A DNA stretch of 64,000 bases from assembly GCF_013167455.1 (NCBI RefSeq), contig NZ_CP038328.1. One strand, 5' to 3'. The notes beneath the pieces are model-generated. The model did not search any database and was not told the origin of the DNA. It worked only from the letters and a program-made list of their open reading frames with translations. The position numbers were made by a program, and so were the translations under genes. Of this stretch, positions 26,036 through 32,537 are shown one piece after another (the stretch's first letter is position 1; each line of letters starts with the position of its first letter). The DNA is from Escherichia coli O157:H7. Its GTDB lineage: Bacteria; Pseudomonadota; Gammaproteobacteria; Enterobacterales; Enterobacteriaceae.

Positions 26036-27556
26036 TTAGTGGTAGCCCATCAACTGAGCGCCGATCACCACGACGCTGGACATAATAAACAGCAGTCCAA
26101 GCAGGGTCGCGCCCACCTTCAGCCAGTTACGGAAGTCCACCCGGCAAACACCGAGCGTCGCCATTAACGAAGCTGAGGTCGGGTAAATGATGTGACTGAA
26201 GCCATCACCAAACTGGAAAGCCAGCACGGTAACCTGACGGTTAACACCGACCAGATCGCCAAGCGGTGCCAGTAACGGCATGGTTAACGCCGCCTGACCA
26301 GAACCGGACGTCACGAAGAAATTAAATACCGCCTGGAAGAGCAACATAAACCAGGCCGCGACCGCGTTGTCCAGACCGCTAATGGCATTGGCAATGCTGT
26401 TGAGGATAGTATTTAACACGCTGGCATCACCCGCTTCACCATTACCGACCAGCAGCAAAATCCCTTTGGCGAAACCCACCAGCAGGGCAGGGGCGATCAT
26501 CATTCGCGCCCCTTCGGTGAAGGATGAAGCCATGGTATTAACCGTCATACCGTTAAGGCGGAAAACAACGCCGATGATGCCAATCACCAGACCCATGGTG
26601 AAGAACTGGCTGGCAATTTCTGGAATAAACCAGGCATTAACGATCACGCCCCAAATCACCCAGACCATTACGGCGGTCAGGACAATCAATACCAGCCAGT
26701 CACCAAAGGTAAACGGACGTTGTTCAACATCCGCCTGCTTTTCACGAAAGAAGCGGTCGGACTCATGCACGCGTGACAGAAGAGGATTCTTTTTCACTCG
26801 TGAGGCGTACACCATGGTAAAGATCAGGCCAATCAGAGTGGCGATAACCCACACCACGATGCGCAACCCGGAGCCAGAAAGCACCGGAACGCCGGCAATC
26901 CCCTGAGCAACGACCACACAAAACGGGTTCATCCACGAACTGGCAAAACCGATTTGCGTGGCAATATAGGTCACCAGGACGGTGGTAATACTGTCATAGC
27001 CCAGCCGGACCATTAGCGGTGCGATGATAATGGCAAAGGCGACGGCCTCTTCCCCCATACCAAATACCGCGCCGCCAAGTGAAAACAGAATAAACAGCGC
27101 AGGAATAAAGAGAATTTCATTCCCACGGGTATGGCGAATAAGCGCCAGGATACCGTTATCAATGGTTCCTGTACGCATCACAATGCCAAACGCGCCGCCA
27201 ATCACCAGCATAAACATGATGATGCCAACGGCTGTCCCGTATTTCGATCCTGAGGTTAACCCTTCAAACGGGAAGTTCATCAGGCCCGGGCGTTCATCGC
27301 CCGTCGTGAACAGCTGTACGCGGTGATACTCAGGTTCGCCTGCTTCGTTAGTCAGAAGGCGAAATGAGTGTGGATCTACGACTTTGCGTGTTTTTGTTTG
27401 ACCATCAACCTGATACTGCACTTCCTGACTGTCAAACATCCCCACCGGAACTACCCAGGTGGCAAGGCTGGTTAAAATAGCAACAAAAAAGATAATCACC
27501 AACGTATCGGGCATTGCCCATCTTCTTGTTGGTTTGGATTCAGTGATTGCGGACAT
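26036..27556 (-). CDS. yfcC: Putative inner membrane transporter YfcC (C4-dicarboxylate anaerobic carrier-like)
   Basis: Track ORF 513 aa; likely start at the ATG giving 506 aa (MSAITESKPTRRW..); polytopic membrane protein. Confidence 0.9.
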   Translation of the reverse strand: MSAITESKPTRRWAMPDTLVIIFFVAILTSLATWVVPVGMFDSQEVQYQVDGQTKTRKVVDPHSFRLLTNEAGEPEYHRVQLFTTGDERPGLMNFPFEGLTSGSKYGTAVGIIMFMLVIGGAFGIVMRTGTIDNGILALIRHTRGNEILFIPALFILFSLGGAVFGMGEEAVAFAIIIAPLMVRLGYDSITTVLVTYIATQIGFASSWMNPFCVVVAQGIAGVPVLSGSGLRIVVWVIATLIGLIFTMVYASRVKKNPLLSRVHESDRFFREKQADVEQRPFTFGDWLVLIVLTAVMVWVIWGVIVNAWFIPEIASQFFTMGLVIGIIGVVFRLNGMTVNTMASSFTEGARMMIAPALLVGFAKGILLLVGNGEAGDASVLNTILNSIANAISGLDNAVAAWFMLLFQAVFNFFVTSGSGQAALTMPLLAPLGDLVGVNRQVTVLAFQFGDGFSHIIYPTSASLMATLGVCRVDFRNWLKVGATLLGLLFIMSSVVVIGAQLMGYH

Positions 27557-27745
27557 AGCGCAAATATTCCCTTGCACAAAACAAAGTGGTAAGTATGCAA
27601 AGTGAGATGGCGCAATTCATTGATGCAGCGCAGTTAAGCAAGATAATCAGAAAGGATTAATGCAAATTAAGAGAATAAAAAACCGGAAATAGTGACTATT
27701 TCCGGTTCAGATATCCGCAGCGCAAAGCTGCGGATGATGACGAGG

Positions 27746-29890
27746 TTACTGCTGCTGTGCAGACTGAATCGCAGTCAGCGCGATGGTGTAGACGATATCG
27801 TCAACCAGTGCGCCACGGGACAGGTCGTTAACCGGCTTGCGCATACCCTGCAGCATCGGCCCGATGGAGATCAGGTCGGCAGAACGCTGTACCGCTTTGT
27901 AGGTGGTGTTACCGGTGTTCAGATCCGGGAAGATGAACACGGTAGCGCGACCTGCAACCGGAGAGTTCGGCGCTTTGGATTTCGCAACGTCAGCCATTAC
28001 CGCAGCGTCGTACTGCAGCGGACCGTCGATCATCAGGTCAGGACGTTTTTCCTGCGCCAGACGAGTTGCTTCGCGAACTTTTTCTACGTCGCTACCTGCA
28101 CCAGAAGTACCGGTAGAGTAGGAGAGCATAGCAACGCGCGGTTCGATACCGAAGGCTGCAGCGGAATCAGCGGACTGAATCGCGATTTCTGCCAGCTGTT
28201 CTGCGGTCGGATCCGGGTTGATCGCACAGTCACCGTAAACGTAAACCTGTTCCGGCAGCAGCATGAAGAACACGGAAGATACCAGGGAGCTGCCCGGTGC
28301 AGTTTTGATCAGCTGCAGCGGCGGACGGATGGTGTTTGCGGTAGTGTGAACAGCACCGGAAACCAGACCATCAACTTCATCCTGTTCCAGCATCAGCGTA
28401 CCGAGCACCACGTTGTCTTCCAGCTGTTCGCGGGCAACGGTTTCGGTCATGCCTTTGTTCTTACGCAGCTCGACCAGACGACCAACATAGCTTTCGCGAA
28501 CCACTTCTGGATCAACGATTTCAATGCCTGCACCCAGTTCTACACCCTGAGACGCTGCAACACGGTTGATCTCTGCCGGATTACCCAGCAGTACGCAAGT
28601 TGCGATACCACGTTCAGCACAGATAGCGGCTGCTTTAACGGTACGCGGTTCGTCACCTTCCGGCAGTACGATACGTTTGCCCGCTTTGCGCGCAAGTTCA
28701 GTCAGCTGATAACGGAACGCTGGCGGAGACAGACGACGGCTGCGCTCAGAAGTGGCAGTCAGAGAATCGATCCAGTCAGCGTTGATGTAGTTAGCAACGT
28801 ATTCCTGAACTTTCTCGATACGCTCGTGATCGTCAACTGGAACTTCCAGGTTGAAGCTCTGCAGGCTCAGAGAAGTCTGCCAGGTGTTGGTGTTCACCAT
28901 AAATACCGGCAGGCCGGTAGCGAAAGCACGTTCGCACAGTTTAGAAATGCGCGCGTCCATTTCGTAGCCGCCAGTCAGCAGCAGGGCACCGATTTCTACG
29001 CCGTTCATGGCAGCCAGGCAAGCGGCAACCAGCACGTCAGGACGGTCTGCGGAAGTCACCAGCAGAGAACCGGCACGGAAGTGCTCCAGCATGTGCGGAA
29101 TGCTGCGTGCGCAGAAAGTGACGGATTTAACGCGGCGAGTATTGATGTCGCCTTCGTTGATGATGGTCGCATTCAGGTGGCGAGCCATATCGATCGCACG
29201 AGTCGCGATCAGGTCAAAGCTCCACGGCACAGCGCCGAGAACCGGCAGCGGGCTGGATTCTTGCAGCTTCGCCGGATCAACATTGTTTACTTTAGCTTTG
29301 GAAGAGTCGTCGAAAATCTCGGACAGATCCGGGCGAGTACGACCCTGTTCATCAACCGGTGCGTTCAGTTTGTTAACGATAACGCCGGTGATGTTGGTGT
29401 TTTTGGCACCGCCGAAGCTGTTGCGGGTCAGTTCGATACGCTCTTTCAGCTGTTCCGGGGTGTCAGTGCCCTGAGACATAACGAAGACGATTTCCGCATT
29501 CAGCGTTTTAGCGATTTCGTAGTTCAGAGACTGGGCAAATTGGTGCTTACGTGTCGGGACCAGACCTTCAACCAGAACGACTTCAGCGTCTTTGGTGTTA
29601 GCGTGGTAGTTTGCGACGATCTCTTCCATCAGCACATCTTTCTGATTGCTGGAAAGCAGACCTTCAACGTAGCTCATTTTCAGCGGTTCAGCGGCCGTCG
29701 TGGTGGAAGAGTTCGCACGCACGATAGTCGTAGTCTGATCGGGCGCATCGCCACCGGTACGCGGCTGAGCGATAGGTTTGAAAACGCTCAGACGAACGCC
29801 TTTGCGTTCCATTGCACGGATCACGCCAAGGCTGACGCTGGTCAGACCGACGCTGGTTCCGGTAGGGATCAGCATAATAATACGGGACAC
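27746..29890 (-). CDS. pta: Phosphate acetyltransferase
   Basis: 714 aa; three-domain Pta architecture; adjacent to ackA. Confidence 0.97.
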
Positions 29891-29936
29891 GGTTTATCCT
29901 CTTTCGTTACCGCCGATTTGGCGGGTTACAAAACAG

Positions 29937-29959
29937 CACCGCCAGCTGAGCTGGCGGTG
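29937..29959 (-). other. ackA-pta intercistronic hairpin
   Basis: caccgccagc-tgag-ctggcggtg in the 74-bp ackA-pta gap. Confidence 0.5.
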
Positions 29960-29964
29960 TGAAA

Positions 29965-31167
29965 TCAGGCAGTCAGGCGGCTCGCGTCTTGCGCGATAAC
30001 CAGTTCTTCGTTGGTTGGGATAACCACCGCAGGACGGGTACCTTCTTTGTTGATGAAACCAGATTTGCCGAAACGTGCAGCCAGATTGCGTTCATGATCA
30101 ACTTCAAAGCCCAGCACGCCCAGTTTGCCCAGAGACAGTTCACGGACCATCGCGGCATTTTCACCGATACCACCGGTGAATACAACAGCGTCCAGACGAC
30201 CATCCATCAGCGCAGTGTAGGCACCGATGTATTTCGCCAGGCGGTGGCAGTAAACGTCCATTGCGCGCTTCGCGTCTTCTTTCGTCGCGTAGTTGTCTTC
30301 AACATAGCGGCAGTCGCTGGTCACTTCGGTCAGACCCAGCAGGCCAGACTCTTTGGTCAGCAGTTTGTTGATTGCGTCAACGCTCATGCCCAGGGTGTCG
30401 TGCAGGTGGAAGATGATCGCCGGATCGATATCACCAGAACGGGTACCCATGACCAGACCTTCCAGCGGGGTCAGGCCCATAGAGGTGTCAACGCATTTAC
30501 CGTTGCGGATAGCAGAAACGGAACCACCGTTGCCCAGGTGGCAGGTGATGATGTTCAGTTCTTCTACCGGTTTGTTCAGCATTTTTGCCGCTTCCTGGGT
30601 TACATAGAAGTGGCTGGTGCCGTGCGCGCCGTAACGACGGATGCCGTGCTCTTTGTACAGGTTGTACGGCAGGGCGTAGAGGTAAGACTCTTCCGGCATA
30701 GTCTGGTGGAACGCGGTGTCAAATACAGCAACGTTTTTGTCTTTCAGCTGTGGGAAAGATTTCAGAGCTTCTTCGATACCGATCAGGTGAGCCGGGTTGT
30801 GCAGCGGTGCAAAAGAAGCTGCATCTTTGATACCCTGAATAACAGACTCATCGATCACTACGGAGCTGGTATACTTTTCGCCGCCGTGTACGATACGGTG
30901 ACCGATAGCAGTCAGCTGCGCAGACAGTTCTGGTTTTTGTGCCAGAATAGTATTAACGATAAAGTTGAGCGCTTCGCTGTGAGCGGCGCCTGCACCTAAA
31001 GCCGCTTCCTGTTTATTGCCGTCCATTTTCCATTTGATACGTGCTTCGGGCAGGTGGAAACATTCGGCTAAACCAGAAAGGTACTCTTCACCATTTACTG
31101 CATCGATGATGGCAAATTTCAGTGAAGAACTACCGCAGTTCAGAACCAGTACTAACTTACTCGACAT
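29965..31167 (-). CDS. ackA: Acetate kinase
   Basis: 400 aa; N-terminal [16 protein letters not shown] (ASKHA superfamily). Confidence 0.97.
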
Positions 31168-31504
31168 GGAAGTACCTATAATTGATACGTGGCTAAAAAA
31201 ACGTCAGGGAGCCATAGAGCGTAGCGCATGATGACACCGACATTTATGATTAACATCATGCACTGCAAATTTTTTTTGCATGATGGAAGAAATATCTTGA
31301 GTCTATGCCATTTTGCGTAATTTTCAGCCAATGGCATAATGTATATGAATTTGACGACTCAATGAATATGTACTACTTAGGCCTTCAGGCTGCTAAAGGA
31401 TACCTGATAGTGGGTATGGAAGACAAAATGTTTTGAACGTTGTCCCGCTGAGTTGTGAATTTGCACAAATTTTTGAATCTTTATATGTGAAGTTGAGGTG
31501 AAGC

Positions 31505-31960
31505 ATGTCAACGCCGGATAATCGTTCTGTTAATTTTTTTAGCTTGTTTCGCCGGGGACAGCATTACTCAAAGACGTGGCCGCTGGAAAAACGCCTTGCC
31601 CCGGTCTTTGTCGAAAATCGCGTTATCAAGATGACGCGTTATGCGATCCGTTTTATGCCGCCGATCGCCGTATTTACTCTCTGCTGGCAGATTGCCCTGG
31701 GCGGTCAGCTTGGGCCGGCAGTTGCCACTGCCCTGTTCGCCTTAAGTTTACCCATGCAGGGATTGTGGTGGCTGGGCAAGCGTTCTGTCACGCCATTACC
31801 CCCTGCAATCCTCAACTGGTTTTATGAAGTTCGCGGTAAATTGCAGGAGTCTGGACAGGTGTTGGCACCCGTTGAAGGCAAGCCTGATTACCAGGCATTA
31901 GCTGACACGCTTAAGCGTGCCTTCAAACAACTGGATAAAACTTTCCTTGATGATTTGTAA
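31505..31960 (+). CDS. yfbV: UPF0208 inner membrane protein YfbV
   Basis: 151 aa, two TM segments. Confidence 0.9.
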
Positions 31961-31964
31961 TTGA

Positions 31965-32537
<573 letters not shown>

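Follow-up and report, generated by a model that had tools for sequence, protein, structure and literature searches.

A conserved terminator-like hairpin and a second covarying hairpin in the ackA–pta intercistronic spacer of Escherichia coli

The spacer that separates the co-directional genes ackA and pta in Escherichia coli O157:H7 encodes two RNA hairpins, both of which we regard, with very high confidence, as structures maintained by selection. Hairpin 1, the ackA-proximal structure, is followed by a U-run and together they form an element of the intrinsic-terminator type; our preferred reading, held tentatively and at somewhat short of an even chance, is that this element provides leaky punctuation inside the ackA–pta operon, with leaky termination as its primary function. 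The structure of the element, the strand on which it folds, the selection acting on it and the conservation of its position across bacterial orders are directly apparent from the comparisons described here, which start from a window of 64,000 nucleotides (contig NZ_CP038328.1 of assembly GCF_013167455.1) and extend to the corresponding loci of other gammaproteobacteria. The ackA–pta hairpin is uncharacterized but of an ordinary kind, and it lies in an operon that has been studied very thoroughly; a literature search found no paper that describes it. What is new is the depth of its conservation, its frozen stem, the second covarying hairpin and the strong selection on a structure about which 3′-end catalogs are silent.

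Table 1. Features of the ackA–pta locus, in window coordinates
Feature	Position	Strand	Description	Basis
ackA (acetate kinase) CDS	29965..31167	minus	400 aa; stop codon TGA at 29967..29965	ORF list and translation; E. coli annotation
pta (phosphate acetyltransferase) CDS	27746..29890	minus	714 aa; GTG start	
ackA–pta intercistronic spacer	29891..29964	minus	74 nt; nearly all base-paired in two adjacent hairpins	
Hairpin 1	29937..29959	minus	CACCGCCAGC-uca-GCUGGCGGUG; perfect 10-bp stem, 8 G–C pairs, 3-nt loop	
U-rich tract CUGUUUUGU	29928..29936	minus	Abuts hairpin 1 on its 3′ side; interrupted; five of the first 8 nt are U	
Hairpin 2	29899..29936	minus	Outer stem CU.UUUUGU / ACGAAA.AG; inner stem-loop CCGCC-aaauc-GGCGG at 29924..29910	
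pta translation initiation region	29888..29903	minus	Shine-Dalgarno AAGAGGA at 29903..29897, 6-nt spacer, GTG at 29890..29888	
Terminator-like hairpin 3′ of pta	27680..27708	minus	13-bp stem plus UUUUUUAUUCU; presumed operon end	

A 200-nt segment of the window is 100% identical to the annotated ackA–pta junction in more than 5,400 complete E. coli genomes, which identifies the two genes, and the spacer corresponds to positions 2414673–2414746 of MG1655. Written as mRNA from the ackA stop codon to the pta start codon, it reads UGA-uuuca-CACCGCCAGC-uca-GCUGGCGGUG-CUGUUUUGUAAC-CCGCC-aaauc-GGCGG-uaACGAAAGAGGAuaaacc-GUG; hairpin 1 and its tail are UGA-uuuca-CACCGCCAGC-uca-GCUGGCGGUG-CUGUUUUGU, the reverse complement of a plus strand in which the hairpin is CACCGCCAGC-TGA-GCTGGCGGTG. 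The stem starts 5 nt past the ackA stop codon and has a predicted energy of about −19 to −20 kcal/mol. The whole spacer folds at −35.8 kcal/mol, compared with −18.2 ± 3.2 kcal/mol for 200 dinucleotide-shuffled sequences, none of which is as stable (z = −5.57). RNA folding thereby confirms the inverted repeat that a first-pass annotation had noticed between the two genes, and places it beyond chance. That annotation had parsed the repeat into arms of 10 and 9 nt around a 4-nt loop; a 10-bp stem with a 3-nt loop is slightly better, and the interval it had given for the hairpin (29891–29964) is the exact spacer and not the hairpin itself (29937–29959). It had missed the second hairpin, which covaries and fills the rest of the spacer, abutting hairpin 1 with no linker, such that the U-rich tract doubles as the 5′ side of the hairpin 2 outer stem.

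Many of the palindromes found between E. coli cistrons are REP elements, and a GC-rich spacer can fold by chance; as accounts of this locus, a REP/BIME-like dispersed repeat and a functionless chance hairpin are nevertheless extremely improbable. The palindrome pattern, with up to three mismatches allowed, has a single match in the window (0 expected), and a 40-nt query of 5,423 E. coli genomes recovers only the locus itself and its palindromic self-match. With one locus per genome and one match in the window, we reject membership in the REP/BIME families, while the fold statistics given above speak against chance and the invariance and covariation described below rule out neutrality. Rfam 15 offers no family for the spacer either, the best overlapping matches reaching 15.5 to 16.8 bits (E > 8) where gathering scores are 39 to 43. 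Among the 5,423 genomes, 280 differ at one or two of the 40 nt. The sole one of these inspected, E. coli 25DN, carries a C>T change just 5′ of the stem and a G>T change in the U-run (L082:64 and L082:96; window positions 29961 and 29929), the latter turning UGUUUUGU into UGUUUUUU; the U-run is thereby lengthened and a G–C pair of the hairpin 2 outer stem is broken.

In its anatomy, hairpin 1 resembles an intrinsic terminator. The stem is GC-rich, has a short loop, lies on the transcribed strand and falls within the length range of such elements (about 5 to 14 bp), and a consensus scanner flagged it as terminator-like on the minus strand with the tail CTGTTTTGTA, which satisfies the rule of at least five T in 8 nt. 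The U-tract also qualifies, though its stem-proximal positions are interrupted (C-U-G before UUUU), and a d'Aubenton-Carafa-type score is borderline, at −7 for the core stem and +15 only when two extra pairs and a bulge are included. Given this stem-proximal C-U-G and the borderline score, the E. coli terminator is probably weak, in keeping with the silent Term-seq lists discussed below. At the presumed end of the operon, the Adams 2021 data place a Rho termination region at window position ~27648 on the minus strand (MG1655 2416989), ~25 nt past the predicted pta intrinsic terminator; the 3′ end of that predicted terminator itself is absent from the Adams 2021 list.

For comparison, we assembled 80 gammaproteobacterial loci from one AckA scan of species-representative genomes, placed the ackA stop and the pta start in 78 of them and folded every spacer. 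In 21 Enterobacteriaceae genera, the 20 stem positions of hairpin 1 and the UGUUUU that follows are 100% invariant, and the loop is free, with differing sequences and lengths of 3 to 6 nt. This invariance at 26 of 26 stem and U-run positions compares with 17% of fourfold-degenerate sites in ackA and pta (P about 8e-21 if sites are independent). Among 32 Enterobacterales the T-run is at least 90% conserved and 10 of the 13 stem pairs have changed on both sides, including a series from C–G to U–G to U–A; the covariation score is 0.224, against 0.109 for shuffled controls (0 of 500 as good) and at most 0.094 for slid registers. G–U pairs outnumber A–C pairs in the stem by 16 to 6, an excess by which we assign the folding to the ackA–pta mRNA (sense) strand. 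Furthermore, an RNAalifold consensus of the 21 Enterobacteriaceae recovers both hairpins unguided, and a covariance model of the element finds the spacer as its sole match in the 64-kb window and matches other Enterobacterales ackA–pta spacers with E values of 1e-11 to 1e-2.

These patterns also bear on whether the palindrome acts as DNA, whether as the operator of a dimeric protein, as a cruciform or as a recombination site, an idea with which the perfect 10+10 repeat, invariant in Enterobacteriaceae, would agree. However, loops of 3, 4, 5 and 6 nt change the distance between half-sites while the arms stay fixed, the wobble excess on the sense strand and the C–G to U–G to U–A series are a signature of RNA, and other orders keep a hairpin of unrelated sequence at the same place. 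A DNA operator is unlikely on these grounds; a conserved U-run, moreover, would have no role in one, and we consider any DNA-level explanation very improbable.

As a control, the same genomes show free variation in the stem of a terminator-like hairpin downstream of yfbV, and relative to this neighbor the ackA hairpin stem is unusually constrained. The yfbV hairpin lies in the spacer between the co-directional genes yfbV and yfbU (31982–32012, plus strand) and is canonical, with AAAAGAAGGC-auacuca-GCCUUCUUUU followed by a U-run (fold z = −4.65); its 5′ arm and the upstream ACGCAUAUAAAAGAAGGCA are well conserved in Enterobacteriaceae, and its 3′ arm and loop turn over. The ackA–pta hairpin has been lost in Yersinia thracica (L021:2704-2745) and in two Rosenbergiella species (L045 and L076:2704-2744), where the spacers are 41 to 42 nt, from which it follows that the hairpin is dispensable; these species are natural loss-of-element cases and possible comparators. 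In E. coli BL21 (NZ_CP170101.1; L083:1577-1809), the native spacer is swapped for ~230 bp annotated as an integrase fragment, presumably a promoter region taken from an integron or a resistance cassette. This replacement looks like an engineered strain in which a foreign promoter drives pta, not like natural variation.

The position of the element is conserved well beyond its sequence. A hairpin of −10 kcal/mol or lower starts 0 to 23 nt past the ackA stop in 73 of the 78 loci, and in most taxa the start falls at 0 to 17 nt; in 58 of the 78 it is followed by at least four U in 8 nt, as compared with 5% of dinucleotide-shuffled spacers. Over all loci, the U fraction is 0.56 in the hairpin tails versus 0.24 in the remaining spacer. 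Pasteurellales, Vibrionales, Aeromonadales, Orbales and some Shewanella have a nonhomologous hairpin and U-run at the same place, and the covariance model of the E. coli element has no match in Vibrio, Pasteurellaceae or Shewanella. The scanner calls canonical terminators in Aggregatibacter (AAACTGCCG...CGGCAGTTT CTTTTT) and in Vibrio (10 bp plus T7), and the Vibrio stem covaries. Vibrio spacers, which are 97 to 148 nt long, contain, downstream of the ackA terminator, another conserved hairpin, with the base GGGGCU(C/U)AAC...GUUGAGCUUUU and a variable apex, that the automatic alignment missed (L054:2710-2760, L060:2745-2820, L080:2755-2805 and L056:2735-2780); eight Vibrio and Photobacterium loci gave no Rfam match.

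Taken together, the stem and U-run anatomy, the invariance, the covariation and the position in 73 of 78 and 58 of 78 loci support leaky termination, the most economical reading of a GC stem with a conserved U-run that directly follows a stop codon in five orders. Conservation of the U-run in particular favors a terminator over a pure exonuclease block, which needs no U-run; the protective hairpins of Dar and Sorek 2018 are without U-tracts (PMC5927463).

Hairpin 2 is limited to Enterobacteriaceae, hairpin 1 and its U-run being far more widespread. In the predicted outer stem, UUUUGU of the U-run is base-paired to ACGAAA, and CU to the AG of the Shine-Dalgarno GAGG. The inner stem has two-sided changes in four of five pairs, with 96.5% of cells paired and 0 of 500 shuffles as good. 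Cedecea and Enterobacter Ag1 have a different, unrelated inner stem; there, GAAAAC is the partner of the U-run and the Shine-Dalgarno is free. The arms of the inner stem, CCGCC/GGCGG, resemble those of hairpin 1, and a 5-nt direct repeat, GUAAC, stands on both sides of the inner stem-loop (29925–29929 and 29906–29910, minus strand). Yersiniaceae and Pectobacteriaceae lack this stem-loop and read UUUUGAC-UAACGA directly; on the strength of this direct reading and the repeat, the inner hairpin looks like an Enterobacteriaceae-specific insertion or duplication. A pta leader motif, GAC(U/C)AACGAGCAACCGU(A/U)AAGAGGUU, is kept in Yersinia, Pectobacterium, Brenneria, Photorhabdus, Xenorhabdus and Acerihabitans (L035:2751-2785; also L018, L027, L028, L032, L033, L038 and L042), and the same region has a small predicted AACC/GGUU hairpin over part of the Shine-Dalgarno. 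The arms of hairpins 1 and 2 can pair with each other in E. coli (ACCGCC/GGCGGU); since, by eye, this pairing is not conserved where the inner stem differs, we rejected an alternative-pairing switch.

Hairpin 2 raises the possibility that the spacer structure mainly sets or insulates the pta ribosome-binding site, with hairpin 2 masking an A-rich enhancer and part of the Shine-Dalgarno and hairpin 1 isolating the site from ackA ribosomes, or coupling it to them. We think this unlikely as the main function. On its side are the covariation of hairpin 2 and its pairing with the AG of GAGG and the upstream ACGAAA, a Shine-Dalgarno region predicted to be largely paired in 21 of 21 genera (mean unpaired probability 0.26 over 10 nt, GAGG −4 to +2), and a kept GTG start, which suggests tuned, submaximal initiation: AAGAGG and the GTG start are unchanged in Enterobacteriaceae, and pta starts with GTG in all Enterobacterales loci except Rosenbergiella (TTG). 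However, when the first 12 nt after the ackA stop were forced unpaired in constrained partition-function folding, to mimic a terminating ribosome, Shine-Dalgarno accessibility rose merely from 0.34 to 0.42, and inconsistently so, on which basis we rejected ribosome-triggered opening of the site. The free Shine-Dalgarno of Cedecea and Enterobacter Ag1 also counts against control of pta translation, and the narrower distribution of hairpin 2 leaves hairpin 1 unexplained. Intercistronic hairpins that sequester a Shine-Dalgarno sequence are known as devices of translational coupling or as operators. Hairpin 2 is like them in that it engages some of the pta Shine-Dalgarno together with the preceding A-rich region. 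It is unlike them in that it masks the site only in part, that a ribosome opens it little in the model and that Cedecea and Enterobacter Ag1 have no such masking.

Returning to leaky termination, published 3′-end data do not list the element. The Adams 2021 Term-seq lists contain, for three growth conditions, no 3′ end within or near the spacer or assigned to pta, which is a weak negative in that these lists comprise about 900 to 1,200 dominant ends per condition and lack pta's own terminator as well. In the study of Dar and Sorek 2018, ackA–pta is retained in a filtered set of 390 operons, from which operons had been removed if the second gene had a transcription start site (TSS) of its own, if a Term-seq site with a terminator signature followed the first gene or if Rho terminated transcription; ackA–pta is absent from the pairs that differ at least 2-fold in stability and abundance (47 differentially decaying operons; PMC5927463). 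Neither gene is mentioned in the supplements of SMRT-Cappable-seq and Clarke 2014. Hence the Term-seq check proposed in the first-pass annotation gave, in either resource, no listed end of the sort that an intrinsic terminator would produce 7 to 9 nt past its stem. Its suggestion of partial termination retains the terminator anatomy, the selection and the same-place elements of other orders, and lacks listed E. coli 3′ ends; its other suggestion, stabilization of the ackA transcript, is so far unsupported in E. coli, ackA–pta being outside the list of at least 2-fold differences in stability and abundance (PMC5927463).

Transcript and protein data bear on the same question. As relayed by PMC6085430, Kakuda 1994 is the source for ackA–pta and pta-only transcripts, and in that account no ackA-only transcript is cited. 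Antisense silencing at the ackA 5′ end lowers AckA activity by 78% and Pta activity by 48% (PMC1635301); a 48% loss of Pta upon ackA silencing implies that read-through is substantial and that pta is partly independent. The small RNA SdhX represses ackA and leaves Pta unchanged (PMC6393394, PMC9438474). The action of SdhX on ackA and not on pta, and the unequal losses of AckA and Pta upon silencing, fit the partial independence of the two genes that leaky punctuation would give. Against leaky termination stand the lack of a listed Term-seq 3′ end, of an at least 2-fold ackA/pta difference and of a cited ackA-only transcript, the interrupted E. coli U-run with its borderline score, the dispensability of the hairpin seen in Yersinia thracica and Rosenbergiella, and also the SdhX result itself: if repression of ackA raised termination, SdhX should lower Pta, which is unchanged.

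The main rival of leaky termination is decay insulation, which is compatible with termination and which we consider possible but doubtful. Here the abutting hairpins would block 3′-to-5′ exonucleases, to the benefit of ackA, and hinder 5′-end-dependent RNase E attack or scanning on the pta side, so that decay triggered in ackA, for example by SdhX/Hfq, is kept out of pta. SdhX lowering AckA and not Pta is just what such an insulator would do (PMC6393394, PMC9438474). Furthermore, the order of a hairpin, an AU-rich match to RN|WUU (G-U|U-U-U) and a second hairpin is the layout of malEF-type 3′ protection combined with papBA-type 5′ protection (PMC5927463), the spacer is almost wholly paired, the stem is more frozen than a nearby ordinary terminator, and the absence of a strong Term-seq terminator signal agrees with it. 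On the other hand, protected processed ends would be expected in Term-seq and none is listed, ackA–pta is not among the 47 differentially decaying operons (PMC5927463), the U-run is paired and not single-stranded in the predicted fold, and the U-run that follows the hairpin across orders is superfluous for this role.

Comparison with the known protective elements, all from PMC5927463, gives a similar picture. Like the malE–malF-type 3′ protective stem-loops, hairpin 1 is a stable hairpin directly after the upstream cistron and is conserved among enterobacteria. Unlike ackA–pta, which has a U-tract and is absent from the tables of decay-regulated operons, those stem-loops have no U-tract, have Term-seq ends and confer at least 2-fold stability on the upstream gene; the malEF element is also a multicopy REP, whereas the ackA–pta hairpin is single-copy. 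By this literature comparison, hairpin 1 does not belong to the malEF type. Hairpin 2 is placed like papBA-type 5′ protective hairpins, between an AU-rich, RN|WUU-like stretch on its 5′ side and the downstream cistron. It differs from them in that the candidate RNase E site is predicted to be paired and has no documented cleavage, and in that papBA-type structures lie inside the upstream coding region.

The first-pass annotation had also supposed a separate pta promoter nearby, which is in accord with the reported pta-only transcript, to the extent that PMC6085430 relays it; the spacer itself has no sigma-70-like match. A consensus scan (−35/−10, 16- to 18-nt spacing) found no sigma-70-like promoter on the minus strand in 27500–31700. 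A lenient position weight matrix found nothing in the spacer, its best candidate being a weak TTGTAT-17-GAAAAT that lies ~295 nt before the start of pta; no sigma-70-like match is conserved in the final 300 nt of ackA, and its last 100 codons have no synonymous-site constraint. With no promoter-like sequence in the spacer, the reported pta-only RNA would have to begin within ackA or be a product of processing. We also rejected a small RNA derived from the ackA 3′-UTR, as its U-tail is short and the last 100 codons lack the synonymous constraint expected of a seed. Elsewhere in ackA, synonymous-codon identity in the 21 Enterobacteriaceae has two peaks. In codons 1 to 12 (31132–31167, minus strand) it is 0.97, against a gene mean of 0.71, and this peak coincides with the translation-initiation region reportedly targeted by SdhX. 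In codons 266 to 285 (30313–30372, minus strand) it is 0.85 to 0.93 with no obvious promoter or structure, and may reflect codon bias or an embedded element.

Leaky intrinsic terminators inside operons are a well-established class, the internal terminators of rpsU–dnaG–rpoD and rplKAJL–rpoBC being the classic cases. The ackA–pta element is like these in having a GC-rich stem-loop and a U-rich run between cotranscribed genes, downstream expression by read-through and a report of an additional internal promoter. It is unlike them in having no documented 3′ end, an interrupted U-run, a stem that is frozen across genera and a U-run that is reused by a second hairpin.

From this anatomy we infer how the element may act. 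RNA polymerase coming from the ackA promoter would mostly read through hairpin 1 in E. coli, and a minority of transcripts would end, or be protected, at this hairpin, by which the ackA and pta mRNA levels would be partly uncoupled. A ribosome terminating on ackA would be expected to melt the base of hairpin 1, given that the stem starts only 5 nt past the stop codon. The footprint of the ribosome and the geometry of its helicase are established, and it is on these that a suppression of termination by ribosomes is predicated. Termination would thus be at its minimum under efficient ackA translation and would rise once RNA polymerase runs ahead of the ribosomes. In the read-through RNA, hairpin 2 would sequester the U-run and part of the pta Shine-Dalgarno and may in this way tune pta translation.

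Finally, in the most elaborate form of the proposal, which is speculative and which we hold to be rather improbable, the spacer would be a composite transcription–translation-coupling device that sets the AckA:Pta ratio and hence acetyl-phosphate, in which hairpin 1 lies near enough to the ackA stop codon to be suppressed by the terminating ribosome, read-through reports on ackA translation, the stacked hairpins insulate pta from ackA decay triggered by small RNAs, the layout was already present in the ancestor shared by Enterobacterales, Pasteurellales and Vibrionales, and the whole is invisible to standard Term-seq in fast-growing cells. Acetyl-phosphate is a global donor of phosphoryl and acetyl groups, and its level depends on AckA and Pta together. 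The physical basis by which SdhX uncouples ackA from pta is left unexplained in PMC6393394 and PMC9438474, and the conserved, structured spacer is an obvious candidate. When metabolic engineers exchange this spacer, as seems to have happened in BL21, a conserved control element is lost with it. More broadly, a terminator-shaped hairpin inside an operon can be under strong selection despite its absence from lists of 3′ ends, and such catalogs are therefore no proof that an element is without function.
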